From NCBI GenBank assembly GCA_047601445.1, contig JASGJH010000001.1:6016001-6080000 (forward strand): 64,000 nt of DNA, given 5' to 3'. The notes under the pieces were generated by a model, which saw only the letters and a list, made by a program, of their open reading frames with translations, was not told the origin of the DNA and made no database searches. Source of the stretch: Myxococcales bacterium (GTDB lineage: Bacteria > Myxococcota_A > Polyangia > Polyangiales > DASUME01). Position numbers and translations under genes: made by a program. Below are positions 29,801-61,025 of this stretch, piece after piece (the stretch's first letter is position 1; each line of letters opens with the position of its first letter).

Positions 29801-30950
29801 TGCCGAGGGCCGCCGTGATGGGGATCGTGAGCGACTGGCCGTCCTCCGCCGCCACGAACGTGGTGCCCGAGGCAGGACTCGTCAGGCTCACGCTGCAGCC
29901 GCTAGTGTCCACGGTGATCACCCGCTGGCTTCGGGTGGTGGCACCGGCTTCGTCGCGGCAAATCGCCATCACGCGCGCCGATCCGTCGGGCAAGGCCACG
30001 CCCTCGAAGCGAGCCACCGTGCTGCCGGGCGCGATCATGGCGGTGACCACGTTCTGCTCATCACCGTTGATCAAGAGCTGCACCGGATGGCTCGCGCCGT
30101 CGGCGTCGGTCTGCACCTCGATGTCGAGGTTGAGCCCTGGAATCTCGCCGTCATCGATGTCGTCGGCGGAGGTGTACGTGCGTTCCTCGAAGGGATTCAG
30201 CGCACACGAAGGTCCATTGCAGTCGAGCATCACGTCGGCCGGGAAGGGCACCGCGGCGCAGTGATTGTCTTCCACCAACAGCGCCAGTTTGAACGCCTCG
30301 TTGCGCAGCTCGATGGGCACGTCGGCGATCTGCAGTGTGCCCCCGCGCGTCACGCCGCTGGCCACGCGGCCGCCCTTCACCAACACCGAGACACGCGTGC
30401 CGTCGCGCAGACCCGTGGCCGCGAGCAACGGGATCGTGTAGCTCTCCCCGCAGCTCTCGCCCGCGCGAGGACCCAGCAGCAAGGGCTCACCGAGGGCCGG
30501 CGGCGCCGGATCCAGGAACGTGATGGAGCCGCAGGGGTCCTCGAAATAGAGCGTGATCACCGGCGACATGCGGCCGCTGCGCGCGTCCCGTGCGGCCAGC
30601 CGGTTGGCTCCGGGAAACAAGGTGACCGAGGGGAAGGTGGCTGCGCTGCCGCTCGTGGGCATGCGCGTGATCACCTCCGGGGCGCCACCCGAGAGTCGCA
30701 GCAGCTCGATGGGCACGCCGTCGTCCACCGTCTCCACGCGCACCTGGATCTGCATCCCGGCGGTGTAGGTGTCGACGTCGTCGGCGTCGCTGAAGGTCTG
30801 GTCGCTCGCTGGCGACACGATGCGCAGAGCGTACGGGTCTTCCTCGGCGAGATCGCAAGCGGGGACGCAGCTCACCAGGGCCAAGAGGCAGGCCCAGCGC
30901 GCTCCGTGTCTGGCTTCCGGGCCCACCAGCGCCCGTCGACTTCGCCCCAT
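26838..30950 (-). CDS. Large Cys-rich surface lipoprotein with Ig-like repeats and a C-terminal FG-GAP/integrin-alpha-like propeller
   Basis: Signal ending VPAC; repeated beta-rich modules; GDVNGDGFDD, GNFDGD, GDLDGDG, GDLDADG, GDVDGDG loops. Confidence 0.82.
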   Translation of the reverse strand: MGRSRRALVGPEARHGARWACLLALVSCVPACDLAEEDPYALRIVSPASDQTFSDADDVDTYTAGMQIQVRVETVDDGVPIELLRLSGGAPEVITRMPTSGSAATFPSVTLFPGANRLAARDARSGRMSPVITLYFEDPCGSITFLDPAPPALGEPLLLGPRAGESCGESYTIPLLAATGLRDGTRVSVLVKGGRVASGVTRGGTLQIADVPIELRNEAFKLALLVEDNHCAAVPFPADVMLDCNGPSCALNPFEERTYTSADDIDDGEIPGLNLDIEVQTDADGASHPVQLLINGDEQNVVTAMIAPGSTVARFEGVALPDGSARVMAICRDEAGATTRSQRVITVDTSGCSVSLTSPASGTTFVAAEDGQSLTIPITAALGSDCASARFADSDTPDCAQLSAAPYQAVTLGQTTFSSTLTLSKNGPRFLCVGTKDSSDNQSVVSVPVTFENKGPSLSIQSPNGPLMLNRAGDATHVADADPSTPACDQAVAVTCALDGKTVSLVRMPDNVVLAETTCVGHRASFASVPFPSQNDGTSYQVAARTTSDKGLIGKSTPLEVWADCEPPHLSFSNFSCGLSAVTSDMDEDAGKAGLQKTLRVSNMPNPKPAVSLSLSTSAGPLAGSPFNSETHDGPETVFAGLTLPTGLIEAQACASDESGNAACSAPCDLLVGDVPAVTILTPADDQVVYSVDHSAAGVAYHGTAPSDVDCSGVAGLQVPVIAGVTNAAVGRAARVRVYDVAGALVDEVPTSVNGQGRVVACVRTQEGALRLRIEVDAASAATNGLYGAAERRFGVDTLAPTSALVSSALATSCREPSSLNFGVSASEDDPLSFELRCSSTSIDSEAAWKAAQPVPGALHEASTASGASGTNSAPGALTWTLPAWLPGARHYCSVRGYDRVGAYTPLGTSHLFEQPALTARGVPLPSELDDSAHEEPAGLTMTAVGDVNGDGFDDVVVSRAAPRNLGAAALYLGSAHGLAANAHSVFETTDSYELGTAVVALGNFDGDAFGLNDFAISAPLSGRLFVVLGRREFPAGNRALDAGGCSADLCVVGSVGLGAALASARYDLDALPDLAAADAAGALVLLGDGGFEPIPELGASGAGSCLDARLGGPAPDACGSGSSSAARGFRVQTERSVDLIAGAWPGALFLAHAGSQGAPALWLSAGRAYAREDQLVSVASSELSLLQQPGAPVTPGNLALVGDLDGDGQAELAWGHGAGAGSVQLYRRSGEGLVTAFSVLNDLAGGSADGFGYDVASGAHPELGQLGDLDADGRADLLVSAQGEAGPHGSVDLFQQLAPYSGSRPRSSRAIALGDDNLPTSDAPAEAPYRRQGQWIGDVDGDGHLDLAVLEPDHERGAGRFVVLGECAP

Positions 30951-30969
30951 CAGCTCACTCGATTCTCGC

Positions 30970-32280
30970 TCACACCAGGATTTCGGCGTCGGCCGCCAGC
31001 GACTCTTCGGCGGAGACCGCCCGGATCTCGTCGTCGCGTCGCGTGGCCAGCTCGTACAGCTCGACCAGCAGGCCAGGGTAGGTGCGCATCAACGTCTTGA
31101 GGCTCTCGCGCGTCAGTTCGTAGGCCACCGTCGGGTACATCGCGAGCACGTCCGCCGTGGCGTCGCGCCGTAAAATCAGCGAGATCTCGCCCACCACGTC
31201 GCCCGCGCCCAGCGTGGCTAGCACCAGCCGGTCTTGCCCCTCCGGCACGGACACGGCCACGGCGCCGCTGGCGATGAGGTAGATGCTCTCGGCCTCCTGC
31301 TCGCGCACGATCAGGGCCTCGTTCGGCTCGAAGAAGCGCATCTCGAGCTTGCCAAGGAGCTCCGCCCGCTGGCTCATGGGCAGGCCGGAGAGCACTCGCG
31401 CGTGGCGCATCAAGTTCGCCTGCATGCGACCGCGGCAGAACAACGAGAGCTCCTTGCTCAGCTCGGGCGCTCCCTCTGCCGCACGCTCCAGCTCGGCGCG
31501 TCCGAGCACGAGCAGCTGCGTCGGCTCCAGGGCGACCACGCTGGCGCTGCGCGGCGCCGCGCTCAAGAGGGCCATCTCGCCGAACATGGCGCCCGGCCCC
31601 AGCTGGGCGAGCAGCGTCTCGTCGCCGCCCGTGCTGCGCACCACTTTGAGCACGCCGCGCGCGACCACGAAGGCTTCCTGACCCTGGTCGTCCTGGCGCA
31701 CCACGGCCTGTCCGCCCGAGATCTCCTCCACGCGAATCGCATTCAACAGGCGGCCGAGCTCCTTGGGGGGTAGGGCGGCGAACAGCGGCAGCGCCGGCAA
31801 CGGGCTGTCGGCCGGCACCGGGTCCTCGAGCTTCAGGTAGCCCTGCATCACCTCGTCGGCCTCGGCGTACAGGGCGTCGCCGGAGAGCTTGTTCAGGTCG
31901 GGCTGGACATCGATCTTGGGGAAGGGTGGCGGGCGCTGCGTGTTGTCGCCGATGCGCGGGGAGCCCTTGGCGAAGGCCTTGGCGATCTGGGCGATCAGGG
32001 GGGCCTGGTCTTCGCCGGCGTCGAGGGCCAGCGTGCTCGCCACCAGGGCACCCGGGAGGTCGCCGCGGCGAATGAAGGCGTCCACCAGGCGTGCCGCGAT
32101 TTCGGCCCCGAGCAGGGTACGATCTTGGTCGATCAGCACGCGCGCCACCAACGCCACCGGACCGGGTGCTTCGCGGCTCGCGCGAGCGCAGGCGAGGGCC
32201 AGACGCAGGGCGGCTTCTTCGTCCCCGTCGAGGCGATGGGCGTGGGCTTGATCCAGAGGCGAGAGCACGTGATCGGTCAT
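30970..32280 (-). CDS. Protein with two cyclic nucleotide-binding domains
   Basis: LGPGAMFGEMALLSAAPRSASV and LGAGDVVGEISLILRRDATADV; helical N-terminus. Start ATG 32280. Confidence 0.88.
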   Translation of the reverse strand: MTDHVLSPLDQAHAHRLDGDEEAALRLALACARASREAPGPVALVARVLIDQDRTLLGAEIAARLVDAFIRRGDLPGALVASTLALDAGEDQAPLIAQIAKAFAKGSPRIGDNTQRPPPFPKIDVQPDLNKLSGDALYAEADEVMQGYLKLEDPVPADSPLPALPLFAALPPKELGRLLNAIRVEEISGGQAVVRQDDQGQEAFVVARGVLKVVRSTGGDETLLAQLGPGAMFGEMALLSAAPRSASVVALEPTQLLVLGRAELERAAEGAPELSKELSLFCRGRMQANLMRHARVLSGLPMSQRAELLGKLEMRFFEPNEALIVREQEAESIYLIASGAVAVSVPEGQDRLVLATLGAGDVVGEISLILRRDATADVLAMYPTVAYELTRESLKTLMRTYPGLLVELYELATRRDDEIRAVSAEESLAADAEILV

Positions 32281-42519: not shown

Positions 42520-44004
42520 TCAGGGCGTGCCGACGCTGCCGCCCACGTTGACGCCGCCGCTGGGCGCCACGGTGGTGCCGGTGGTGCCGTTGATGGCGCC
42601 GCCCGTGCTGCCCTCGACGGGCGCGGGAGGTGGAGGCGGTGCGTACTCGGGAGTGGCCGCGGGTTCCACGGGCTCGGAGGGCACGGGCTCGGTGGGCTGC
42701 GGCTCGGCCGGAGCGACCTCGACCTGGCTGGTGCCGCTCGAGAACACGTCGCCGAACTTGTAGGTGAGCGTGGCCATCGCGAGGAAGCCGTTGGCGTTGC
42801 CGCCGATGAAGTTCGGTCCGCCCGTCACGAAGCCGTTCTGGACCACGCCGTCGAAGGCGAAGTTGTTCTTGGCCAGACCGAGACCCGCCGTCCAGATGAA
42901 GTTGCCCGTGCTGGCGCGCTCCTTGGTGGGGTTGTCGGTGGTGTCGCGCACGCGGTCGATGCTCCAGCTGTACTGGGTGCCGGTGCGCACGTAGAGCCAA
43001 TCGAGCAGCTGCACTTCGGCGGCCATGTTCACCATGGGCACGAAGAAGTTGAGGCTCTTGGTGGCGTCGTTGTCGGTCTTCGTGTCCGGATCGCTCTTGC
43101 CGATCGCACCCAAGAAGCCGCCGTAGGCCGCGATCTTCGCGATGGCGAGGTTGATCACCGGACCGATGCCGCCCATCAAGCCCACGTCGAACGTGTTGGC
43201 CTTGAGATCGGGGTCCTGGGTCTTGTCCTTGAAGTGCTCGTTGGTGAACGACGCGTTGCCGAGCAAGCCGATGTCCACGACGTCGTTGACCGGGATGTAG
43301 CCGCGGGCGAGGAAGCCGGCGCGCACGCGTGTGCCGCTGTTGATGTCTTGCTGGTCGCCGGCGGCGTCCAGGCCGGTGGAGTTCGCGAAGGCGACCACCA
43401 CGTTACCCGACAAATCCAGGCGCAAGCCCTGCTTGGGCAGGATGCTGTAGCCGGCCTGAAGGGCCGCGAAGGTCTGCTGCGCCTTCTCGGTTTCACCGTC
43501 CACGTTGCGGGCCTGAATGCCGCGCCCGAAGCCCAAGCGCAGACCGAAGGCGTTATCGCCAATGGCCTTGCCGTACATCACGTCGAACACGGTGGCCGGT
43601 GCGATGGGCCCGGCGTTGGAGCCCGCCGCGGCCGGGGCGGCGAAGACGCCAGTGGTGGGGGCGGTGAAGGGGTTCTGCACGCCCGACAACCACTCGAGCT
43701 CGGTGTTGAAGCCGACGATGTCGGGGCTCAGCAAGTCACCGCGGTGCAGCGCGATACCGAAGGCGTGGTTCTCGTTGCCGAGCGTCAACACGCCGTTGCC
43801 GGAGCCAGAGTTTCCGCCGTAATCCAGGCGGATCATGTTGCGGTGCAACACCGTGGTCTGCGGGAAAGGGAAGACGTCGTCCGGATCCTTGATCAGCAAG
43901 TTTCCGCCGAGCGAAGTACGTCGATCTGCTTGGGCCGTCTCCACCAGCCAGGTCGCATTGGCCGTTAGGCACAACAAGCCCACCAAGAGCTTCCGATTTT
44001 GCAT
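42520..44004 (-). CDS. Putative outer-membrane beta-barrel protein with Pro/Glu/Gly-rich C-tail
   Basis: Signal ending AQA; alternating-hydrophobic strands (WLYVRTG, FIWTAGLGL, MATLTYKF); biased codon use; GAGGTGGAG RBS before ATG 44004. Confidence 0.72.
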   Translation of the reverse strand: MQNRKLLVGLLCLTANATWLVETAQADRRTSLGGNLLIKDPDDVFPFPQTTVLHRNMIRLDYGGNSGSGNGVLTLGNENHAFGIALHRGDLLSPDIVGFNTELEWLSGVQNPFTAPTTGVFAAPAAAGSNAGPIAPATVFDVMYGKAIGDNAFGLRLGFGRGIQARNVDGETEKAQQTFAALQAGYSILPKQGLRLDLSGNVVVAFANSTGLDAAGDQQDINSGTRVRAGFLARGYIPVNDVVDIGLLGNASFTNEHFKDKTQDPDLKANTFDVGLMGGIGPVINLAIAKIAAYGGFLGAIGKSDPDTKTDNDATKSLNFFVPMVNMAAEVQLLDWLYVRTGTQYSWSIDRVRDTTDNPTKERASTGNFIWTAGLGLAKNNFAFDGVVQNGFVTGGPNFIGGNANGFLAMATLTYKFGDVFSSGTSQVEVAPAEPQPTEPVPSEPVEPAATPEYAPPPPPAPVEGSTGGAINGTTGTTVAPSGGVNVGGSVGTP

Positions 44005-44233
44005 TTGCTCCACCTCGTCGGGCGCAGGGCCCCCCTGGTCGATGCGCAACGGCACCGACACGTCCCACACGGACGCGGTCGAACGCTATCAATGCTCACT
44101 CGGAAACCAAAGAAACCGACACGTCTTCGGTAACGAAGACCGGCAAAACACCCAGAAGTCCTAACAAACCGCTAGTTTCGCGTCCCCAGGCAGGGGCGCA
44201 CTGAAGTCTGATCAGCGATCCTGAGGGTCTGAA

Positions 44234-45076
44234 CTAGACCGGTTCCAGACGCGCCATCACGTCTGCAAGATTCTCGCGCCAGTCGGTCATGGGGCCGACC
44301 AGGGCTTCGGTGGGAGCGAGGTCGAGCACGCTGTAAGCGGGGCGCTTGGCGGGGCGCGCAAAGTCTGCTGAAGTCGTCGGCAAGACGCGCGCCTTGTGGC
44401 CCGCGATGCGCACGATGGCGCTGGCGAACTCGAACCAGGTGCACTCGCCGCCGTCGGTGACGTGCAGCGTGCCACGCGCACCCTTGTCGAGCAGCGCGAG
44501 GGTCACGCGCGCCAGGTGCTCGGCGCTGGTGGGCCGGCCGCGCTGATCGTTCACCACTTTGAGCTCGTCACGCTCACGCGACGCCTTGTAGATGGTGCGC
44601 ACGAAGTTGTTGGCCCACGGCGCGTAGAGCCAGCTCGTGCGTAAAATCAGGTGCGGTCCTTTGGCATCCCAGATGGCCTGCTCGCCCACGGCCTTGGAGC
44701 GCCCGTAAGCGTTGACCGGCGCGTGCGGCTCATCCACGCGATAGGGATGACTCGACTCGCCCGGGAACACGTAGTCGGTGCTGTAGTGGACCAAGGGAAT
44801 GTTCCGCTTGGCGCAGGCCTCTGCCACGATGCGTACGCCCTCACCGTTGGCGCGGGTCGCCGCGGCTTCGTCGGCCTCGGCGCCGTCGACGTTGGTGTAG
44901 GCCGCGCAGTTGAGCACTGCGGAGAAGGGCTGCGCGAGCACGCTCTCGACGTGCGCCGGATTGGTCAGGTCGAACTCGGGCAAGTCGACGCCCACGAAGG
45001 ACTCGCCGCGCGCCGTGAGGAGCTCGCGCAGAGCGCGCCCGAGCATGCCTCGTGCTCCCAGGATCAATGTGCTCAT
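44234..45076 (-). CDS. rmlD: dTDP-4-dehydrorhamnose reductase
   Basis: GARGMLG, NCAAYTNVD, STDYVF, YGRSK, DQRGRPT, AKRPAYS; own ATG at 45076. Confidence 0.93.
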   Translation of the reverse strand: MSTLILGARGMLGRALRELLTARGESFVGVDLPEFDLTNPAHVESVLAQPFSAVLNCAAYTNVDGAEADEAAATRANGEGVRIVAEACAKRNIPLVHYSTDYVFPGESSHPYRVDEPHAPVNAYGRSKAVGEQAIWDAKGPHLILRTSWLYAPWANNFVRTIYKASRERDELKVVNDQRGRPTSAEHLARVTLALLDKGARGTLHVTDGGECTWFEFASAIVRIAGHKARVLPTTSADFARPAKRPAYSVLDLAPTEALVGPMTDWRENLADVMARLEPV

Positions 45077-45637
45077 CGGAAGTCCTCGTAGCGCGGCAGC
45101 TTGTTGGGATCGATCTGCGAGAGCTTGGGGTTCTTGAGAATCCTTGGCGCCCAGCGTCGGGTTCTTGATGGGCCAGGCGATGGCCACGTCCGGATCGTCC
45201 CAGGCGATGCCCACCTCGCACTCCGGGTGGTAGAGGTCCGTGCACTTGTAGGCGAACTGCGCGAACTCGCTGACCACGCAGAAGCCGTGCGCGAAGCCCG
45301 GTGGCACCCAGAGCTGATGATGGTTCTGGGCCGACAAGGCCACGCCGGTCCACTTGCCGAAGGTTGGCGAGCCCACGCGGACATCGATGGCCACGTCGAA
45401 GACTTCGCCTTCCACCACGCTCACGAGCTTGCCCTGGGCGTGCGGCAGCTGCATGTGCATGCCGCGCAGGATGCCGTGGGAAGAACGCGACAGGTTGTCC
45501 TGCACGAAGGGCAGCCGAATGCCCACCTCGGAATAGCGCTTGGCCTGAAAGGTCTCGATGAAGAAGCCGCGCTCGTCGCCGAACACCTGCGGTTCGATCA
45601 AGAGCACCTCGGGCAGTGATTGTGGAGTGACCTTCAC
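45073..45637 (-). CDS. rmlC: dTDP-4-dehydrorhamnose 3,5-epimerase (apparent one-base insertion near 45139 fuses it to rmlD)
   Basis: FGDERGFF, VQDNLSRS, LRGMH, QGKLV, GFAHGF, YKCT; the natural-looking C-terminus KNPKLSQIDPNKLPRYEDFR* is in another frame. Confidence 0.9.
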
Positions 45638-45641
45638 GTGA

Positions 45642-46520
45642 CTACCTACCCCGCTGAATCAGTTCGATCAGATATTGGCCGTAGCCCGTCTTCTTGAGCG
45701 GCTCTGCCAGCGCGAGCACCTGCTCCTGCGACAGCCAACCCTTGTTGAACGCGATCTCTTCCGGACACGCGACCTTGAGGCCCTGGCGCTGCTCGATGGT
45801 CTGGATGAAGGTGGAGGCCTGCATCAGCGAATCGTGCGTGCCGGTGTCGAGCCAGGCCACGCCGCGTCCGAAGATCTCCATGTTGAGCTTGCCCTGCTCG
45901 AGGTAGAGCCGATTGAGGTCGGTGATCTCCAGTTCCCCGCGCTTGCTGGGCTTGAGACTGGCCGCCAGGTCCACCACCTGATTGTCGTAGAAGTAGAGCC
46001 CGGTCACGGCGTAGTTGCTCTTGGGCTGCGCGGGCTTCTCTTCGAGGCCGACCACCTTGCCCTGGGCGTTGAACTCGGCGACGCCGTAGGCCGTGGGATT
46101 CGAGACCCAGTAGCCGAACACGGTGGCACCCTCGCTGCGCTTGCTGGCGTCGCTGAGCATGCCCTGGATGCCGTGGCCGTAGAAGATGTTGTCACCCAGC
46201 ACCAGCGCGCAGGGGTCCTTGCCCACGAACTCGCGTCCGATGATGAAGGCCTGCGCGAGTCCGTCGGGGCTCGGCTGCACGGCGTAGGAGATGTTCATGC
46301 CCCACTGCTTGCCGTCGCCCAGAAGCCGCTGAAAGCCGGCCTGATCGTGAGGCGTGGTGATGACCAGTACCTCGCGGATACCTCCCAGCATCAGGGTGCT
46401 GAGCGGGTAGTAGATCATGGGTTTGTCGTAGACCGGCATGAGCTGTTTGCTCACGGCGATGGTCAACGGATGAAGGCGTGTGCCCGAGCCGCCCGCCAGA
46501 ATGATGCCCTTTTTGATCAT
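45642..46520 (-). CDS. rmlA: Glucose-1-phosphate thymidylyltransferase
   Basis: [45 protein letters not shown]. Confidence 0.97.
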
Positions 46521-46563
46521 CGTTTCTCCGCTCGCGTCGCCCGAGGGCGCGCTTCGACTTCCT

Positions 46564-47613
46564 TCAGCGTGTTCCGTAATTCTGGTCGATCCATTTGCGG
46601 TAGTCGCCCGAGCGCACTTCCTCCACCCAGGCCTTGTTCTCGAGGTACCAGCGCACGGTCTTACGGAAGCCGGTCTCGAAGGTTTCCTTGGGTTTCCAGC
46701 CGAGCTCGCGTTCCAGCTTGGTGGCGTCGATGGCGTAGCGCAGGTCGTGGCCCGGACGGTCGGTCACGTAGGTGATGAGCTTGAGCAGCTCCTGCTCGTC
46801 GGCCCCGGTCTCCTCGGCCACCACGCGGATCAGCTTGTGCACCACGTCGATGTTCTTGAGCTCGTTGAAGCCGCCGATGTTGTAGGTGTCGTCCACCTTA
46901 CCCTTCTGGATCACCGTCCAGATGGCCTCGCAGTGGTCGGTCACGTAGAGCCAGTCGCGGACGTTCTCACCCTTGCCGTAGACGGGCAGGGGCTTGCGCT
47001 CCACGATGTTGCTGATCATCAGCGGGATGAGCTTCTCGGGGAACTGCAGCGGGCCGTAGTTGTTGGAGCAGTTGGTGACCTTGGTGGCGAGCTTGAAGGT
47101 GCGCGCGTAGGCCCGCACCAGGTGGTCGCTGGCAGCCTTCGACGCCGAGTAGGGGCTCGAGGGGTCGTAGCGAGTCTCTTCGGTGAAGAGGCCGCTGTCG
47201 CCCAGGGAGCCGTAGACCTCGTCGGTGCTGACGTGGTGGAACAGACCATAGCCGGGCTTCCAGTTGGCGCGACACGCTTCCAGCAGGTTGAAGGTGCCCT
47301 CGATGTTGGCACGCACGAAGGCTCGCGGGCCCTTGATGCTGCGGTCCACGTGGCTCTCGGCCGCGAAGTGCACCACCAGTTCGGGGTTGTACTTCTTGAA
47401 GAGGGCGTCCACGGCGTCGAAGTCCGCGATGTCCACGCGCTCGAAGACGTAGTTCGGCAGCTTGTCGGTGCCGCTGAGGCTCAGGTTCTTGAGGTTCGCG
47501 GCGTAGGTGAGGACGTCGACGTTGATGAAGGTATGTTCGGGGTGCCGGGGCACCAGGAGATTCAGGAAGTTGGAACCGATAAAGCCGGCGCCGCCGGTGA
47601 CCACGATCTTCAT
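46564..47613 (-). CDS. rmlB: dTDP-glucose 4,6-dehydratase
   Basis: [42 protein letters not shown]. Start is ATG 47613, not 48459. Confidence 0.97.
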
Positions 47614-47902: not shown

Positions 47903-48217
47903 ATGACGAGACCGACCATCAGTTTGGACAGCGTGGTCCAGGCGACGCCGCGCCAGGTTTCCACCGAGCTGGGCGAGGAGACGGTGATCCTGGGCGTCGA
48001 ACGCGGGCAGTACTTCGGGTTGAGCGAGGTGGGGACGCGGCTCTGGGCGCTGGTGCAGGAGCCCACCTCGGTGGATGCCCTGTGTTGCGGCCTGTTCGCT
48101 GAGTACGAGGTGAGCCGACCGACCCTGGAGTCCGACGTGCTCGAGCTGCTGGCTGCGCTGCATGACCAGGGCCTGATCGACGTCCTGCCACGACCGCAGC
48201 CACAGCCGGTCCCGTGA
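47903..48217 (+). CDS. PqqD-family RiPP recognition element (lasso B1)
   Basis: QVSTELGEETVIL, YFGLSEVGTRLWAL, EYEVS, DVLELLAALHDQGLI; stop overlaps the cyclase GTG. Confidence 0.9.
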   Translation: MTRPTISLDSVVQATPRQVSTELGEETVILGVERGQYFGLSEVGTRLWALVQEPTSVDALCCGLFAEYEVSRPTLESDVLELLAALHDQGLIDVLPRPQPQPVP

Positions 48218-50085
48218 CGGCCCTGTTCGGTGCCTATAGCCCGGTCGGGATGGCACTCCCGGAGGGGCTCGGTGCGGCCATGGCGCGGGCCCTGCCGCGA
48301 CCCGTCGACGCGGAGGGCTTCATGCAGCAGGGCCCGCTCTTGCTGGGCGCCCGCGCGCGCTGGTGGACGGAGTCCGAGCTCGGGCTCGTGCCGCCGTGGT
48401 GCGATCCCCACAGCGGTGTGACGGGCGTCTTCGATGGGCGCCTCGACCACCACGAGCAACTAGCGCTGGACCTGGGGGTATCCGCCACGCTCTCGGACTC
48501 GGCCTTGATGGTGGCCGCGTACCTGCGTTGGGACGACGGATTCCTGCGGCGATTGCGCGGCGACTTCGCGCTCGCGCTGTGGGATCCGCGCGCGCGCAAG
48601 CTGCTCATCGCGCGCGATGGGTTCGGTGTCAGACCTCTGTACTGGGCCCAGCTGGCCTCGGGGACGCTCTTGTTTGCGTCGCGCGCGAGCGCGCTCTTCG
48701 CCCACCCCGAGCTCACGCAGGAGCTGGACTCCCTGCGTATCGCCCAGTACCTGGCCAGTAGCTTCACGGACCTCGAGCGCACGTTCTTTGCGCGCGTGAA
48801 GCGCTTGCCGCCCGGACATTTGATGGTGCTCCACGAGGGAGAGCGCCAAGCGCAGCCGCACCGCTATTTCGCCTTCGATCGCGAGCGGGTGTTGCCCTCG
48901 CGCGACAATGGCGCCTACGCGGAGCAGTTTCGGGCGCTGTTCTTCGATGCGGTGCGTACGCGCACCCGCACGCGGGAGCCGCTCGCGTGCTTGTTGAGTG
49001 GTGGGCTCGACTCGTCTGGGCTGCTGGGGACCCTGCGTGCGGTCTTGCCAGAGCAGGCCATCCCTTGCTTCTCGGCGCGCTTCGTGGACTTTCCCGAGGT
49101 GGACGAGGGGGGCTGGCTGGCCTTGTTCGACGCCGACGGCACGCGACGCGGCGAGCTGCGCGCGGATCGCATCGGGCCACTCGACTCCATCGACGAGCTG
49201 CATCGTGACCTCGACGAGCCCTTCCACGCGCCCAATCTCTTCGTCTACGAAGCCCTGGCACGCCTGGCCCACGCGCAGGGCGCGCGCGTGTTGCTCGATG
49301 GCCTCGACGGCGACACCGTGGTGGACCACGGCTACTTCGCGCTGCGCGAGCTGCTGTTTCAGGTGCGCCCCCGGCGCCTCGTGGCGGGCATCCGCGCGCT
49401 GCATCACCGGATGGGCTTCGGCTACGCTGAGATTCTCCGGGGCTTCGTGCTCGAGCCGGAGCTGCGAGCGGTGCAGCACGCGCTGTCGCGGGTGGGTTGG
49501 TTGCCGAGCGGCTACCTGACGCGTGAGTTGGCGCGCCAAAGTGGACTTGCCTCGGAGCTGGCCCGGCATGCGGAGGAGCGCCTGAGCGACCGTAGCTTGC
49601 GCGCGCTCCATCATCGCGCGGTGACGGCACCCATGCTGCCCTTCTATCTGGAGGTCTACGACAAGCTAGCCGCCGTGCTCGGTGTGGAGCACCGGCATCC
49701 GTACTTCGATACGGCGCTGGTGGAGTTCTGTCTGGCGTTGCCGCCGGAGCAGCGCCTGTTCGAGGGGTGGGATCGCGTGATTCAGCGGCGCGCCTTCCAG
49801 GGGTTGATCCCGGAGCCGATCCGGGCGCGACAGACCAAGTCCGTGTGGAGCGCCAACTTCGAGCGCCAGTTGTTCTGGGGACGGCCCGAGCGTGTCCGCG
49901 GGCTGCTGGAGAGCCACGAAAGTCCGCTTGCAGCCTACTGCGATCTCAATCGCATGCGGCGTGACTTGCCGCGGCTGGTAGCAGGTCGCGCGCCCGAGCG
50001 CGTGATGGATTTCTGGTGCGCGCTGAGCTTGGGCCTTTGGCTCGAGGGCCGGCACGCAGACGCACCGCAGGCGCCGGAGGCGTGA
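48214..50085 (+). CDS. Lasso peptide cyclase (asparagine synthetase-like isopeptide synthetase)
   Basis: GDFALALWD, RDGFGVRPLY, LSGGLDSS, LDGLDGD, HPYFD; lacks the N-terminal Cys of glutamine-dependent AsnB; flanked by RRE and precursor. Confidence 0.87.
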   Translation: MTALFGAYSPVGMALPEGLGAAMARALPRPVDAEGFMQQGPLLLGARARWWTESELGLVPPWCDPHSGVTGVFDGRLDHHEQLALDLGVSATLSDSALMVAAYLRWDDGFLRRLRGDFALALWDPRARKLLIARDGFGVRPLYWAQLASGTLLFASRASALFAHPELTQELDSLRIAQYLASSFTDLERTFFARVKRLPPGHLMVLHEGERQAQPHRYFAFDRERVLPSRDNGAYAEQFRALFFDAVRTRTRTREPLACLLSGGLDSSGLLGTLRAVLPEQAIPCFSARFVDFPEVDEGGWLALFDADGTRRGELRADRIGPLDSIDELHRDLDEPFHAPNLFVYEALARLAHAQGARVLLDGLDGDTVVDHGYFALRELLFQVRPRRLVAGIRALHHRMGFGYAEILRGFVLEPELRAVQHALSRVGWLPSGYLTRELARQSGLASELARHAEERLSDRSLRALHHRAVTAPMLPFYLEVYDKLAAVLGVEHRHPYFDTALVEFCLALPPEQRLFEGWDRVIQRRAFQGLIPEPIRARQTKSVWSANFERQLFWGRPERVRGLLESHESPLAAYCDLNRMRRDLPRLVAGRAPERVMDFWCALSLGLWLEGRHADAPQAPEA

Positions 50086-50226
50086 CAGAGATGGTCGCCA
50101 CAGTGGGCGAAACGGCGCCTCGGTTAGCCGCAGGAGGCGTTGCGGTGGCGGTCAAAAGCACCGCTAACGCGAGGCACGTGCGTGAGCGGACGTGTTCGGA
50201 CCCACCGAATCACGAGCGCGTGAGCG

Positions 50227-50242
50227 CGGCACGCAGATTGCT
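50227..50242 (+). promoter_or_regulatory. Sigma54 -24/-12 promoter upstream of the lasso precursor
   Basis: CGGCACGCAGATTGCT versus consensus TGGCACGNNNNTTGCW, with exact GG-N10-GC spacing. Confidence 0.7.
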
Positions 50243-50325
50243 CCACTTCCACCCAGGCAAGCGCGCGTCGGGCGCCGCGCCAGACGACCCGTGGATGATG
50301 GATGAACCCTCGGGGGAGGGAAGCA

Positions 50326-50508
50326 ATGGAAAAGGGAACAGGCAAACGAGCGTATGTGAAGCCCCAATTGCGGAACCACGGCAGCGTGGAGCAGGTCACC
50401 GGTTGGTGCGGCTCTTCGTCGGCCGAGTTCTTTGGTGGACCGCAGGGGGCCTCGCACGGGACCAACAAGATCGGCTTTCATCAGAGCGGGCCGGGCATCA
50501 GCCACTGA
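50326..50508 (+). CDS. Lasso peptide precursor (60 aa)
   Basis: MEKGTGKRAYVKPQLRNHGSVEQVTG-WCGSSSAEFFGGPQGASHGTNKIGFHQSGPGISH: YxxPxL, GxxxxxT with Thr at -2, Glu at core position 8; GGAGG RBS. Confidence 0.88.
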   Translation: MEKGTGKRAYVKPQLRNHGSVEQVTGWCGSSSAEFFGGPQGASHGTNKIGFHQSGPGISH

Positions 50509-50580
50509 GCCTGACGCGCGGCAGGGTAGAGCAGGACGAAGGTCGTGGTCGTCTGGGTTCCCTGGTAACCTGGGGAGCAC

Positions 50581-51495
50581 ATGCATCGCTATCGGGTCTA
50601 CGGCCTGACCATCGAAGCGGACTCCGAGTTGACGGAGCTGCTACCGCTCGCGTCGCCCGGCGAAGGTGACGTCTCGGCGGAGCCGCCCGAGATCGACGTG
50701 CGGATCCGCGTCGCGCCGGCGCAGAGCGCGAGCCAGGCGGCGAACGAGCCGGGCAGCTGGGCGCAGCGACTCGGGCCCAACACCATCGTGAGCCAGTTCG
50801 AGAACACCGCGCGCTTCGTGGTGCTGAGCGGACGCGACGTGCTGGTGGAGCCGTGCGCGGGGGCCGATCCCGACCTGGTGCGTCACCTCTTGCTGGGCCC
50901 GGTGTTCGCGCAGGTCCTGTGGCAGCGCTCGAAGTTCGTGCTGCATGGGTGCGTGTTGCGCGTGGGCTCGCGCCAGCTCGGGTTCATCGGCATGTCGGGG
51001 GCCGGCAAGTCCACCCTCGCGATCGCGCTGCACGAGGCCGGGCACACTCTGGTGTGTGACGACGTGGCGGCGCTGGAGTGGAGCGCGAGTCCGGTGCTGG
51101 TGCACCCGGCGTTGCCGCGCATGCGGGCCTTTGCGGACACCCTCGAGCAGCTCGGCGTGCCGAGTGCGGGCCTCGCGCGGGCTCATCGCGACTTGCCCAA
51201 GTGGTTGCTGCCAGCGCAGCGCTTTGCGGACACGGCGCTGCCGCTCGACCGTGTTTACGTTCTGAGCGCGGGCGAGCGCTGCGAGGTCGCGCCGCTGAGC
51301 CGAGCGGAGGCCATGCTCGAGCTACTGCGCAACACCTACTACGCGGAGCAGTACGTCGGCCTGTTCGGGCCGCAAACGCACATGGAGTTGGCGGGTGCCC
51401 TGGCGAACGGGCTTTCGGTGCAGCGCCTCGCGCGTCCACGCGAGTGGGCTCGGCTGCCGGAGCTGGTGCGCTTCATCGAACGCGAGTGCGCCTGA
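50581..51495 (+). CDS. HPr kinase-like protein (lasso peptide kinase type)
   Basis: YRVYGLTI N-terminus, VLHGCVL, GMSGAGKST (P-loop), VCDDVA. Confidence 0.85.
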   Translation: MHRYRVYGLTIEADSELTELLPLASPGEGDVSAEPPEIDVRIRVAPAQSASQAANEPGSWAQRLGPNTIVSQFENTARFVVLSGRDVLVEPCAGADPDLVRHLLLGPVFAQVLWQRSKFVLHGCVLRVGSRQLGFIGMSGAGKSTLAIALHEAGHTLVCDDVAALEWSASPVLVHPALPRMRAFADTLEQLGVPSAGLARAHRDLPKWLLPAQRFADTALPLDRVYVLSAGERCEVAPLSRAEAMLELLRNTYYAEQYVGLFGPQTHMELAGALANGLSVQRLARPREWARLPELVRFIERECA

Positions 51496-56350: not shown

Positions 56351-56797
56351 CTAGTGCTGATGACCAGGCTGGGCGTGATCGTGATCATGGGCCGCCTGCG
56401 TCAGGCGCGCGCTCAGGTACGAGGCCCCGGCGAGCACCAGCGCACCCGCAATGGAGAAGCCGAGCCCCAGGTTGCTGCCCTCGTACACGTGCCCGAATAG
56501 GTACAGTGCGAGCCCCACACCCATGCCCGCGAGCACCCGCAGATCACGGTGGCGCGAGAAGCCCAGGGCACCGCTGGCTGCCACGCTTCCCACCACGGCG
56601 AAGGTCAGTAGCGTGTCGACTCCGCTGCCCGCCGTGACGACGTGGCTCGCGCTGAGGGCAGGCAAGAGGCCTCCGATCAGCGGGAACACCAGGCAGTGCA
56701 CGGCGCAGGCCAGACTCAGCCACGTGGCCGCGCGCTCGAGGCGGCGTGGCTCGAGTTCCTGCTGAGTCGGGGAATGGGCGTGAAGGGGTTCAGACAC
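56351..56797 (-). CDS. MerC-domain membrane protein with His-rich C-tail
   Basis: LSLACAVHCL motif, four TM helices, tail AHDHDHAQPGHQH. Confidence 0.8.
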   Translation of the reverse strand: MSEPLHAHSPTQQELEPRRLERAATWLSLACAVHCLVFPLIGGLLPALSASHVVTAGSGVDTLLTFAVVGSVAASGALGFSRHRDLRVLAGMGVGLALYLFGHVYEGSNLGLGFSIAGALVLAGASYLSARLTQAAHDHDHAQPGHQH

Positions 56798-56830
56798 GGA
56801 AGGCTTAGAATGGGGGTTGGTCGGTGTAGA

Positions 56831-56845
56831 TGCAACCTGGTTACA
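56831..56845. promoter_or_regulatory. Candidate Fur/Zur-family operator 1
   Basis: TGCAA-CCTGG-TTACA just upstream of the MerC-like gene. Confidence 0.5.
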
Positions 56846-56944
56846 AGAAGCGTCGTTTCATCAATATGTGAAGTGTTCCTTCGAAAAACACAGGGCTTTT
56901 CGACCGTGAGCACGGGGAACGCCCGTGCTACGTCAGCCGCACAG

Positions 56945-59596
56945 ATGCAATCGTGTTGCAAGAAGCCAGCGCTCGCGTGGTCCCTGGCGCTGCTGCTGTC
57001 CGGACTCGCGCCACGCGTGGGGTTGGCGCAGCCAGTCGGTGAAACGCCCGCAGGCGAAGGCGCGCCGAGCAACCCGCCACCAAGCCCCACCGATGCGCCC
57101 GCGGCTCCAGCGCCGAGCTCCCCCGCTCCCGGCGCACCGGCCGCGCCCGCGCTGACCCCGCCGCGTGTCGTGCGCAGCGTGCCTCCCGTGTATCCGGTTT
57201 CCCATCTCACACACGGCGAGCATCCCACGGTGGTCCTCAAAGCAACCATCCTGGCCGACGCCAGCGTGGCCGACGTGACGGTGGAGCACTCGGCCGGGGA
57301 GGACTTCGATCAGGCTGCCATCGAGGCAGTCCGGCAGTGGACCTTCGAGCCCGCCAGCCGCGAGGGCGTGGCCATCGCCAGCCGGGTCGGCGTGGCCGTG
57401 CATTTCGAGCTGCCCGAGCTGGGCACCTTCGACGTGGTCTCGGTGACCGCGGCCGAGCCCGTCATTCCGCATCCGCACGAAGAGTCTGCGCCCCACGCAT
57501 CCGAGCCCGAACCCGAACCCGAGTTCGGCGCCCACGCCAAGGTGGATCCGATCTTGCGCGACCAGGACCGCGGCAATAGCGACTACCAGCTCGACCGGGC
57601 GGTGCTGAGCGCTGCACCCCACGTGGACGGCGCGGACCTGCTCAAGACGGCCCCGGGCATGGTCGTCACGCGCGTGGAGGGCGATGCCGTGGGCCATCGT
57701 TTGATGCTGCGCGGCTTCGACGCCGATCACGGCCAGGACATCGAGCTCACCCTGGACGGTGTGCCGCTGAACCAGCCCTCCCACATCCACGGGCAGGGCT
57801 ACACCGACCTGGGCTTCGTGATCCCGGAGGTGGTGAAGGAGCTGCGCGTCACGGAGGGCGTCTACGATCCCTGGCAGGGCGATTTCGCGGTGGCCGGTAG
57901 CGCCACCTTCAACCTCGGGGTCGAGCAACGTGGCACGCAGCTCTCCACCAGCTACGGCTCCTTCAACACGTTCCGTGAGCTTGCCGTCTGGGCTCCCAAG
58001 GGGCAGCCCGACGACACCTTTGCGGCCGTGAACTTCCGCAAGACGCACGGCTTCGGCCAGAACCGCGAAGGCGAGAACGGCGGTGCGATCGCGCAGGGCA
58101 GCTTCGGACACGGACCCTTGAAGTTGATCCTGCATGGCTCGGCCTACGCCTCGCGGGCCCGCACGGCCAACGTGTTGCGCCGCGACGACATCGAGTCGGG
58201 CCGAGTGGGCTTCTACGACGTCTATCCCTACGCCACTGCCCAGAGCCAGAACGGCACCGCCTCGCGCGTGCAGCTCTCCGCCAAGCTGCGCTACCTGGGT
58301 CACGCCGGCGAGAACGCGGAGCTCTTGCTCTTCTACGTGTTGAACGACTTTCGCCTGCTCGCCAACTACACGGGCTTCGAAGAGGTCTCGCATTTCAACC
58401 CGCAATGGGCCGGCCGGGGCGACCTGATCGAACAGAACAACACCGACAGCACCGTGGGCACCCGGGCGCGCTACCGCAGCGTGACCTACGCGCCGCATCC
58501 CCAGGCCAAGGGCACGCTGGAGCTCGGTTTCAGCGCACGAGTGGACCAGATCGACCAGAGTCAGAACCTGGTGCAGGCGCCGCAGAACGCCATCTGGGAC
58601 AAGCGCGTGGATGCCAACATCGTCGGGGTCGACATCGGGGGCTACTTCGATCTCGACACGGCGTTCACCAAGTACGTGCGCTTGAAGGGTGGTGTGCGCG
58701 CCGATCTGCTCTCGTATCGCATCGACGACGCGCTGCAGAACTTCATCCCCGCCGACCGACCCGCGAACTTCATCATGGGCTATCGGCGCACGGCCGCGGG
58801 CATCGTGGTGAACCCGCGCGTGGTGCTCGAGGTGGAGCCCATCCAGTCGCTCGTGCTCAGTGCCGCCTACGGTGAGGGCTTTCGCTCTCCACAAATGCTC
58901 CTTCTGGACGAGGGCGAGCCCGCTCCCTTTGCCAAGGTGCACTCCAGTGATCTCGGCGCGCGCGTGGCGCTCGGTCCACGCGAACAGGTGCACCTGCGCG
59001 GCACGGGCTACTACACCGCGCTCAGCCAGGACATCGTATTCGACGTGCGCGAGGGGCGCGCGCAGCCCGTGGGGCCGAGTCAGCGCATGGGCATGGTGCT
59101 GTACGCCGATGCGCGTCCTTGGTCGTGGTTGTTGGCGACGGCCAGCGTCACCTACGTGCACGCGACCTTGTCTGGGCCACCGCCACGCACCGCCTTCGAC
59201 CCGAATCCACCGCTGCGTAAGGGCGATCTCTTGCCCTACGTACCACCCTGGGTGCTGCGCCTCGACAGCCACGCAGAGCACGCGCTCACCGACATCAAGG
59301 GGGCGCCTCTCGTGGGCCGCGCCAGCCTGGGCTTCACTTATTGGGCGCGTCGGCCGCTGCCTTACAGCGAGCGCGCAGCCCCCGTGTCGCTGCTCGACTT
59401 CGCGCTGCGGGCCACCTATCGCCTGGTCTACGTCGATGCTTCCGTGTTCAACCTGATCGGTACCGAGTACGCCGCCATGGAGTTCAGCTACACCTCGAAC
59501 TGGGATCCAAGCGCCATCCCCTCAAGGTTGCCTGCCCGCACCATCCAGGCGGGGGCGCCGCGCACCTTTCTGTTCACGCTGGGGGTCACGCTATGA
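56945..59596 (+). CDS. TonB-dependent receptor with N-terminal TonB C-terminal domain
   Basis: Signal, Pro-rich linker, FDQAAIEAVRQWTFEPA (TonB_C), plug LRGFDADHG...SHIHGQGYTD, C-terminal GAPRTFLFTLGVTL; start uncertain. Confidence 0.9.
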   Translation: MQSCCKKPALAWSLALLLSGLAPRVGLAQPVGETPAGEGAPSNPPPSPTDAPAAPAPSSPAPGAPAAPALTPPRVVRSVPPVYPVSHLTHGEHPTVVLKATILADASVADVTVEHSAGEDFDQAAIEAVRQWTFEPASREGVAIASRVGVAVHFELPELGTFDVVSVTAAEPVIPHPHEESAPHASEPEPEPEFGAHAKVDPILRDQDRGNSDYQLDRAVLSAAPHVDGADLLKTAPGMVVTRVEGDAVGHRLMLRGFDADHGQDIELTLDGVPLNQPSHIHGQGYTDLGFVIPEVVKELRVTEGVYDPWQGDFAVAGSATFNLGVEQRGTQLSTSYGSFNTFRELAVWAPKGQPDDTFAAVNFRKTHGFGQNREGENGGAIAQGSFGHGPLKLILHGSAYASRARTANVLRRDDIESGRVGFYDVYPYATAQSQNGTASRVQLSAKLRYLGHAGENAELLLFYVLNDFRLLANYTGFEEVSHFNPQWAGRGDLIEQNNTDSTVGTRARYRSVTYAPHPQAKGTLELGFSARVDQIDQSQNLVQAPQNAIWDKRVDANIVGVDIGGYFDLDTAFTKYVRLKGGVRADLLSYRIDDALQNFIPADRPANFIMGYRRTAAGIVVNPRVVLEVEPIQSLVLSAAYGEGFRSPQMLLLDEGEPAPFAKVHSSDLGARVALGPREQVHLRGTGYYTALSQDIVFDVREGRAQPVGPSQRMGMVLYADARPWSWLLATASVTYVHATLSGPPPRTAFDPNPPLRKGDLLPYVPPWVLRLDSHAEHALTDIKGAPLVGRASLGFTYWARRPLPYSERAAPVSLLDFALRATYRLVYVDASVFNLIGTEYAAMEFSYTSNWDPSAIPSRLPARTIQAGAPRTFLFTLGVTL
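56946..56960. promoter_or_regulatory. Candidate Fur/Zur-family operator 2
   Basis: Palindrome TGCAA-TCGTG-TTGCA overlapping the putative receptor start. Confidence 0.55.
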
Positions 59597-60300
59597 GCCG
59601 CCTGCTTGCGATCTGCGCGTTGGCTTGTGGCTTGAGCAGCGCGTGCGGGGAAACCGGGCAAGAGCGCATCGAGCTCGATCTCGCCGTGCGCGGTACGAGT
59701 GCCACCTCCCTCGAGAGCGACGGCGCGGTGTTCGTGCTGGAGCGCGCCGACGTGGCGGTGGGGCCGCTCTATTTTTGCGCCTCGGAAGGAGCCGACGTGG
59801 AGCTCTGCGAGACTGCACTGGCCCAACTCACCCAGGTGATCAGCATCAACGGCCTCGCACCCCAAGTGGAGCTTCCCGCCAAGCTCCAGGGCACTACAGG
59901 CGAGGTGCGCTCGGCCCTCTACGACTACGGCATCAGCTGGTTCCTCACGGAGACGGCGCCTGCTCCCGCCGGGGACCCGCAGCACAGCGCGGTGCTCGAG
60001 GGCAGGGTCGCGCGGGACGGGCGGGAACTGAGGTTTTCGGCCCTCGTCGACGTGGTGCCGCTCACCGTAGGGGGCTCGGCGGTGCACGGGCAGCACACGC
60101 GTCACGAGCTCTCCAACGGCGATCTACTCACCATCGCAGTGGACCCCTACGCGTGGTTGCGCCCGGTGGACGTCGACGCGCTGTTCGCGCTCGACTCCGA
60201 GGGCACGGGCAGCGTGATCATCGAACCCGGTAGCCAGGCCTACGAGGCGATCCTGCAGAGCATGCAGAATCGCGCGCCGATCCAGTTCGCGTGGGAGTAG
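59593..60300 (+). CDS. Lipoprotein coupled to the TonB-dependent receptor
   Basis: ATG 59593 overlaps the receptor stop; lipobox LSSACG; GPLYFC...LC and HSA motifs. Confidence 0.78.
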   Translation: MSRLLAICALACGLSSACGETGQERIELDLAVRGTSATSLESDGAVFVLERADVAVGPLYFCASEGADVELCETALAQLTQVISINGLAPQVELPAKLQGTTGEVRSALYDYGISWFLTETAPAPAGDPQHSAVLEGRVARDGRELRFSALVDVVPLTVGGSAVHGQHTRHELSNGDLLTIAVDPYAWLRPVDVDALFALDSEGTGSVIIEPGSQAYEAILQSMQNRAPIQFAWE

Positions 60301-60388
60301 GGCCTAGCAGTTCCCACACCATGTCGTACGCGATCTTTCGGAGAGTCGGGCACGGGCACGTGGAGGTCAGGGGTGGGACTGGATACGG

Positions 60389-60835
60389 TTAGGCACAGGC
60401 GTCGCACTGCCCTCGGATCTGAATCTCCAAATCCCCGCCCTTGCGCAGCGCGCTGGGGGCTCCGCGCAGGGCCTTGATGGCGATGCTGCCCGAGGGGAGA
60501 CACGAGACCTTGCCGCAGTCGGTGCACACGAAGTGCGGGTGTTGCTCGCTGTCGTGGGCGTTGCTCGAGCCGCCAGCCAGCTCGAAGCGCCAAATGTGGC
60601 CCACGTCACTGCGACGCAGGATGCCCGCCTCGGCCAGGTCGACCAAATTGCGGTAGACCGTGGTGCGATCGAGGCCCTGCTGCTCCAGCCGCGCCGCCAC
60701 GTCGGCGTGGCTGAGTGGGGTATCGGCGCCGCGCAGCACATTGATGACGGCGGTGCGAGACGAAGTCACGCGCAGTCCTGCGGTCTTGAGGAGCTCGCGG
60801 GTCTGCTCGCGGTCGTCCTTCTTCGCGCCTTTCAT
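60389..60835 (-). CDS. Fur-family metalloregulator (Zur-like)
   Basis: GLRVTSSR, TVYRNL, HPHFVCTDCG, C-terminal CDAC. Confidence 0.92.
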   Translation of the reverse strand: MKGAKKDDREQTRELLKTAGLRVTSSRTAVINVLRGADTPLSHADVAARLEQQGLDRTTVYRNLVDLAEAGILRRSDVGHIWRFELAGGSSNAHDSEQHPHFVCTDCGKVSCLPSGSIAIKALRGAPSALRKGGDLEIQIRGQCDACA

Positions 60836-61025
60836 GGGGCTGACGCTACCTCAGGGTCCAGCTCCGGACAACTGCGTGTGGGCTCGCGCCAGTAGCCCTG
60901 TTTACCCAGCGCCCCGCTCGCCAGTGAGCTCACCGTGTTCCTGGGCCTTCCATCTCGAAGCACGACCGTGCGAATAGGAATCTTGGCGCGTATCATTGGT
61001 CGCCGCGAAGGAGTCGTAACGAAGT

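Follow-up and report, generated by a model that had tools for sequence, protein, structure and literature searches.

How does a lasso peptide cassette mature its product when it has no gene for the enzyme that removes the leader? The question is raised by four co-oriented genes (47903 to 51495) in a 64,000-nucleotide stretch of DNA, the window, from a Myxococcales bacterium (GenBank assembly GCA_047601445.1, contig JASGJH010000001.1, positions 6,016,001 to 6,080,000, forward strand). We found neither a B2 leader peptidase nor an exporter in this cassette. We lean toward a reading in which it uses a B2 encoded far away in the same genome to release a 34-residue core, which would carry a Trp1-Glu8 lasso ring and a phosphorylated serine in the tail.

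The four genes almost certainly form a lasso-type cassette for a peptide that is made on the ribosome and modified after translation (RiPP). The original prediction, made from the letters of this DNA, had named a PqqD-like RiPP recognition element (RRE) overlapping an AsnB-like cyclase that lacks Cys1, a 60-residue peptide with YVKPQL and GSVEQVT motifs, and an HPr-like kinase in a myxobacterium-like host. All four open reading frames (ORFs) are present as described, and same-genus relatives belong to the Polyangiales/Myxococcales. The RRE, or B1 (47903..48217, plus strand, 104 residues), a PqqD-like leader-binding chaperone, matches PF05402 above the cut-off (1.7e-18); its best NCBIfam model is lasso_PqqD_Bac at 65 bits (cut-off 80), and it is 52-65% identical to seven orthologous RREs. 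The lasso macrolactam synthetase, here the cyclase (48214..50085, plus strand, 623 residues), is AsnB-like, with SGGLDS at residues 262-267 and DGLDGD at 362-367, and scores 388 bits on lass_lactam_cya (NF033535, cut-off 525) versus 206 on asn_synth_AEB (TIGR01536). An ordinary asparagine synthetase was rejected for this gene because it begins MTALFG, with no Cys1, and a separate AsnB-like gene with Cys1 (starting MCG, at C1:8070408) lies elsewhere in the genome. A PDB sequence search with the cyclase gave five matches, an amidotransferase and asparagine synthetases, none of them a lasso cyclase. The precursor kinase (50581..51495, plus strand, 304 residues) has an Hpr_kinase_C match (PF07475, 7.7e-6, 26 bits against a cut-off of 33.3) and, by alignment, the His, Walker A and Asp-Asp residues H122-G137-G140-G142-K143-S144-D160-D161.

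The precursor (50326..50508, plus strand, 60 residues) has a 26-residue leader (50326-50403) and a 34-residue predicted core (50404-50505). The leader carries the YxxPxL motif as YVKPQL, and GSVEQVTG with Thr-2 and Gly-1; the core has Trp1, the ring acceptor Glu8 (50425-50427), Phe9, Phe25, Ser33 (50500-50502) and His34, so that 26 residues follow the ring. The calculated monoisotopic mass of the core is 3428.54 in linear form, 3410.53 when cyclized and 3490.49 when one phosphate is added to the cyclized form. In fusilassin/fuscanodin, too, Trp stands at position 1; neither its cluster nor that of pandonodin is known to contain a kinase. Glu8 obeys the rule that the acceptor is an Asp or Glu at core position 7-9 (PMC12214591). 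Y10, P13, T25, G26 and E34 of the precursor, the last being Glu8 of the core, are invariant in all four orthologous cyclase-bearing loci with the precursor on the contig, as are Phe9 and Phe25 of the core, and the Gly-rich stretch varies in length (the core of the G007 orthologue has 37 residues). Two lasso leader models scored 26.6 and 18.1 bits, slightly under their cut-offs of 33 and 19, which places all four NCBIfam lasso scores for RRE, cyclase and precursor below curated cut-offs. A leader hidden Markov model (HMM) trained on 54 leaders, all from other genomes, placed the window precursor at the top (i-E 3.6e-5) when all 171,839 ORFs from the six frames were ranked, and gave only two convincing precursors genome-wide. 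An upstream start at 50302 (68 residues) was rejected, as orthologue starts and a purine-rich site agree with 50326. A stabilizing hairpin between precursor and kinase was rejected, as 50500-50590 folded no better than its shuffles (z 0.16).

We searched the whole genome, a single contig without N (98.7% complete, 5.4% contamination), for the missing functions. It holds one B2-family gene (PF13471), three RREs and two lasso-type cyclases. The sole B2 lies about 327 kb from the cassette in an operon of ABC ATPase, ABC-2 permease, RRE and B2, in which no cyclase and no precursor were found. This B2 (C1:6394049-6394525) reaches 94 bits on lasso_biosyn_B2, whose cut-off is 33; its CLP and AHAW motifs are intact, and Cys91 and His126 are kept. 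The distant operon provides both functions absent from the window, leader peptidase and exporter, and when the ABC genes located after the kinase in orthologous clusters are compared with this genome, its ABC pair is the best match (7/7 queries). Since no B2 or exporter stands in cis and the only B2 is 327 kb away, the cassette could not work alone by the standard route. What had been predicted as a lasso cluster in a myxobacterium is a kinase-type lasso RiPP cassette in a Polyangiales host, lacking B2 and exporter in cis.

Several trivial reasons for the absence of B2 were considered and set aside. The cyclase start overlaps the RRE stop (GTGA), leaving no space for a B2 gene between them; this 4-nt overlap, the same B2-less junction in G007, a second genome of the genus, and the single contig without N speak against an assembly gap or frameshift that masks B2. 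There was no support for the RRE tail as a B2 remnant. A precursor hidden beside the distant B2 was likewise rejected, the leader HMM having given only a 10-bit match with a non-lasso tail there.

About 96 kb from the first cassette stands another without B2 (RRE, cyclase, precursor, methyltransferase, kinase, ABC), and the distant B2 likely serves both in trans. The second cassette spans L002:8791-15138 (C1:6163790-6170137 of the window genome, G000); its methyltransferase has a weak PRMT5_C match, its kinase is divergent, its core has no acidic residue until position 10 and carries two Cys in the tail, and its ABC exporter is present. The same type of methyltransferase stands beside a lasso-like precursor at L036:5093-9298 (G009) and L032:22-2773 (G001), where the acidic core residues are Asp at position 10 and Asp9, respectively. 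In G007 the precursor at L031:2128-2316 has a predicted core that opens with Glu and ends in Ser, with Glu8, one Cys in the ring and another in the tail.

To place this arrangement among related loci, we used purpose-built HMMs on the 45 whose cyclase was flanked by 4 kb or more on either side, leaving out 35 short loci. B2 was present in 33 and absent from the fetched stretch in 12. Ten genomes were searched further, representing 7 of the 12 B2-less loci and 3 with shorter flanks, and B2 was found elsewhere in eight. Loci L132, L126, L141, L115 and L097 (Acidobacteriota) and L133 (a cyanobacterium) have RRE, cyclase, precursor and kinase with no B2 in the fetched stretch and a B2 elsewhere in the genome. 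The split B2 arrangement is thus a recurring minority state, not a rare one. The family as a whole is widespread (among 239 related loci, the best 80 come from many phyla), which tempers the novelty that had been claimed for a lasso peptide in a little-studied group. B2-family matches occurred in 53 of 151 genomes of the order, some being domains of large unrelated proteins. In the open-licence literature, seen mostly at the level of title and abstract, we found no characterized myxobacterial lasso peptide, and by title or abstract opening we found no lasso B2 acting in trans.

The genus allows the history of the split to be traced. The orthologous locus adjoins rmlB in all nine other genomes, with rmlB beside the RRE in 9/9. 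B2 and cyclase both stand in cis in G001, G004, G008 and G009 (the contigs of G001 and G009 end ahead of the precursor), and the locus lacks B2 in G000 and G007. In trees built in careful mode and rooted at the midpoint, the B2-less cyclases of G000 and G007 are sisters (99/98), with G004, which has B2 in cis, outside; the surviving B2s of G000 and G007 are also sisters (100/100). G007 has a complete RRE-B2-cyclase-precursor-kinase cluster at the chromosomal place of the distant RRE-B2 of G000, with flanks 80% and 82% identical. Its two B2 matches are one gene split across overlapping contig ends, which gives one B2 for three cassettes. In the simplest history, the local B2 was probably lost once, in the ancestor of G000 and G007. 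Because the complete cluster of G007 stands at the same place, the other cluster would later have been stripped of its cyclase, precursor and kinase in G000 and have kept its B1-B2, an order of events that we infer. The ratio of nonsynonymous to synonymous substitution rates (dN/dS) against G007 was 0.30 for the RRE, 0.28 for the cyclase, 0.26 for the precursor and 0.30 for the kinase, within a range of 0.26-0.32 that also holds the distant RRE and B2.

The remaining four genomes (G002, G003, G005 and G006) lack the cyclase at the locus, where B2 is followed directly by precursor, kinase and ABC genes, and no close cyclase was found anywhere in these genomes, which are 72-90% complete. Their B2s group together (99/99). 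The cores have Asp6 in place of Glu8, and the RRE, B2, kinase, ABC pair, promoter motif and terminal Ser are kept. These cores (loci L056, L057, L058 and L059) also carry a KxK-C-K stretch. The products of L056-L059 are likely linear phosphopeptides, the outcome of a single cyclase loss as far as the genes indicate.

The promoter motif is of the sigma-54 type and lies between cyclase and precursor: CGGCACG-N4-TTGCT at 50227..50242 on the plus strand, with GG at 50228-50229 and GC at 50240-50241. It agrees at 11 of 12 positions with the sigma-54 consensus TGGCACG-4N-TTGC(T/A) (PMC7910581). The pattern GG.A......TTGC is invariant in 8/8 orthologous intergenic regions ahead of the precursor, the cyclase-less ones included, while the rest of these regions has a mean column identity of 39%. 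A strict pattern set beforehand from the sigma-54 consensus, GGCAC-N5-TTGC, had a single match in the 64-kb window, where 0.0013 are expected per 300 bp, and was present in 2/8 orthologues; a relaxed pattern, chosen after viewing the alignment, matched 8/8 (0.0011 expected per 300 bp). The motif as a family-wide trait was rejected, with 0/5 in other cassettes of the genus and 0/49 ahead of precursor candidates in other loci. The genome contains rpoN, and it is highly probable, judging from this conservation, that precursor and kinase are transcribed from a sigma-54 promoter of their own, apart from RRE and cyclase.

The route that we propose would begin with this precursor-kinase transcript, made apart from that of RRE and cyclase. 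The RRE would bind the YxxPxL leader, by chemistry established elsewhere and inferred here, and present it to B2; such presentation by the RRE, described in PMC10885120, explains Thr-2. Lasso kinases act on the precursor ahead of cleavage (PMC10368454), and here the kinase would do so most likely at Ser33. The distant B2, through Cys91/His126, would then probably cut after Thr-2/Gly-1, and the cyclase would close the ring between the Trp1 amine and Glu8 at the cost of ATP. Threading of the tail is probable; because the Gly-rich stretch varies in length and Phe25 is fixed, a long loop is suggested, with Phe25 as the candidate lock. Export by the ABC-2 pair of the distant B2 operon is weakly suggested. 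Tentatively, the product may be a regulated cell-surface or polysaccharide-linked peptide and not an antibiotic.

Cofolding offers one view of the proposed RRE-B2 partnership. The window RRE, leader and distant B2 scored 0.50 versus 0.13 for the best control, a weak pass; runs had at least 66% of contacts in common, and partner pLDDT (predicted local distance difference test) was at least 76. Among 157 solved pairs 116 attained the mark, as did 2 among 215 mismatched ones; both mismatches, but only 18 of the solved pairs, did so with scores of 0.60 or less. The modeled complex thus has weak support from folding.

A number of observations weigh against our reading. The fold alignments contained cognate pairs from relatives, and comparable B1-B2-leader models are already published. 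In the distant B2 neither His+12 nor His+13 is acidic, and His+16 is Asn where the nine other B2s of the genus have Asp; Gly at His+12 is common in its subfamily (41/54), and the third triad residue is not essential in TfuB2 (bioRxiv 2022.04.06.487251). At the place of Asn33, which binds the leader in LppB, the window RRE carries Ser41, a correspondence drawn only from the motif and from the distance of 37 residues to Asp78. RREs are able to tell pathways apart, though those outside Bacillota were found to be relaxed (PMC13381572), and the pseudomycoidin lasso forms in E. coli without B1, B2 or leader (PMC6993621). Two of the 10 genomes searched, both draft assemblies, yielded no B2. The dN/dS of cassette and B2, about 0.3, exceeds that of three neighboring control genes (0.07-0.12); being an average over the whole divergence from G007, it says nothing of present-day selection on the distant B2. 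Threading is not assured, because the 34-residue core is longer than that of pandonodin (33 residues; PMC13352647). Finally, paeninodin-type kinases act on a terminal Ser, and in the window core His34 follows Ser33.

The site of the phosphate is where an alternative survives best. In a quick tree of 50 kinases with a detectable precursor in the locus (precursors identified by pattern, and kin not independent), the window kinase falls in a clade (SH-aLRT, the Shimodaira-Hasegawa-like approximate likelihood ratio test, 99) in which Ser is the last residue of 17 of 24 cores and the last but one of 4 more; Ser stands in the last two residues of 21/24 precursors inside the clade versus 2/26 outside. 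Because precursors of this clade mostly carry such a Ser, we somewhat favor Ser33, on phylogenetic grounds. Ser4 in the ring is an unlikely but credible site. It is invariant in the three cores that end in Ser-His, whose kinases form a clade of their own (SH-aLRT 100), and BsfK of the deltaproteobacterium Bradymonas phosphorylates ring Ser3 (PMC10368454). However, of the 11 precursors that go with the myxobacterial kinase clade, the 8 others have Ser as their last residue, and the five rml-linked ones among these have no Ser4. The same pathway with a BsfK-like phosphate on Ser4, or on another ring Ser, in place of Ser33 seems to us unlikely.

Could the cassette mature without any B2? A general host protease would then remove the leader before the cyclase closed the ring. 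The pseudomycoidin precedent speaks for this, as do the 12 of 45 related loci and the two searched genomes in which B2 was not found. The two genomes are, however, drafts of unknown completeness, and Thr-2 and Gly-1 are invariant in 4/4 orthologues, both B2-less ones included. Moreover, both B2-less genomes of the genus retain the same B2 paralogue, and G000 kept its B1-B2 after their own cyclase and precursor were gone. We therefore judge B2-independent maturation improbable.

It is equally improbable, in our estimate, that the product is cyclized but unthreaded (branched-cyclic), or that the ring is incidental, function residing in the cleaved phosphopeptide. The very long, Gly-rich, length-variable loop and tail would suit such a product; 4/10 orthologous loci lack the cyclase and have Asp6 for Glu8, with the other parts and the terminal Ser kept; and linear analogues are known in Bacillota (PMC13381572). 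Wherever the cyclase is present, however, Glu8, Phe9 and Phe25 are invariant (4/4), and known loops reach 20 residues (PMC12214591, PMC13352647). That the cassette is a relic stranded by B2 loss and slowly decaying, as the absence of B2 and exporter in cis, the dN/dS of about 0.3 versus about 0.1 in control genes and the Asn-to-Ser change in the leader-binding motif of the RRE might suggest, is very improbable, given that B2 loss predates the split of G000 and G007 (dS about 1), that both retain four intact ORFs, catalytic motifs, leader, Glu8 and promoter motif, and that the dN/dS equals that of RRE and B2 in the complete cluster of G007.

We compared the use of a distant B2, with ring and tail phosphate, with known systems. 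The original prediction had likened the cluster to the paeninodin type. That holds for the HprK-like kinase with its catalytic His, Walker A and Asp-Asp, and fails for the leader, the terminal Ser, the host and B2 in cis; the cluster is paeninodin-like and not a member of the paeninodins. Paeninodin and pseudomycoidin (pade, psm; PMC6993621) share with it a split B1, an AsnB-like cyclase, an HprK-like kinase and a Ser in the end region, and paeninodin clusters, like the window cassette, stand beside polysaccharide genes (PMC13381572). In contrast, paeninodins are found in Bacillota only, favor WxxP leaders (PMC13381572), are phosphorylated on the C-terminal Ser and have B2 and an ABC exporter in cis, whereas the window cassette comes from Myxococcota and has YxxP, Trp1-Glu8, a 34-residue core ending in Ser-His and an internal sigma-54-type motif. 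The bsf cluster of Bradymonas sediminis (PMC10368454) is closer in being deltaproteobacterial, with YxxPxL, an acceptor at position 8, a discrete RRE and, by its published motif, a kinase whose catalytic residues and spacing are those of ours. It differs in having B2, D and N in cis, Ile-2 and a phosphorylated ring Ser3, where the window has Thr-2, Gly3 and no B2, D or N; through it, a deltaproteobacterial lasso cluster with a kinase has already been described.

The linear polyphosphorylated peptides (LPP; PMC13381572) resemble the four cyclase-less orthologues in having RRE, kinase, peptidase and exporter without a cyclase, whereas the window cassette has its cyclase. LPP systems belong to Bacillota and rely on an enzyme resembling signal peptidase I; the cyclase-less myxobacterial versions have B2 and are one clade within an otherwise cyclase-bearing locus. 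No member of the signal-peptidase family was found among the genes scanned beside the three RREs, no genome-wide search having been made. Pandonodin shares the very long core. The chemistry itself is thus of a known kind. What is new is the conserved sigma-54-type motif, the long Trp1 core ending in Ser-His and the ring-less, B2-using orthologues that parallel LPPs, as well as, likely, the arrangement in which B2 is shared in trans and its history can be traced.

Apart from the divergent rml genes (rmlB, rmlA and a fused rmlC-rmlD for dTDP-rhamnose, 44234..47613, minus strand, identified by Pfam and NCBIfam), which lie outside the cassette, its neighbors are unrelated genes. The fused rmlC and rmlD share one 467-residue frame (44234-45637, minus strand); ORF starts in G004, G008 and G002 suggest separate genes there. 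A 516-residue protein with a signal-like N-terminus and no Pfam match (42520-44070, minus strand) is kept downstream of rml in G007 and G004 and looks like an outer-membrane protein from its sequence. Elsewhere in the window, 56351-60850 holds a MerC-like gene, a fusion of TonB domain and TonB-dependent receptor and a Fur-family regulator, a probable metal-uptake locus; a 1416-residue frame with FG-GAP repeats (26838-31088, minus strand), a probable surface adhesin, lies amid several histidine kinases.

According to PMC13381572, it is not known what kinase-modified lasso peptides and their linear analogues do for the cell. This genus, whose other members are known from metagenome assemblies, has full, peptidase-less and cyclase-less forms of one orthologous locus with a promoter motif in common, which makes the contributions of ring, phosphate and regulation separable. 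It is possible, though doubtful as a whole, that they represent a sigma-54-controlled phosphopeptide system in which the ring is optional, a shared B2 serves scattered cassettes, one product is a lasso longer than pandonodin with a penultimate phosphoserine and sister species make ring-less forms. If B2 does work across cassettes, this would explain why about a quarter of related clusters look incomplete, and genome miners should fetch the peptidase from elsewhere in the genome. With an optional ring, the lasso and ring-less forms would be a natural pair for studying the role of phosphorylated lasso peptides beside polysaccharide genes.

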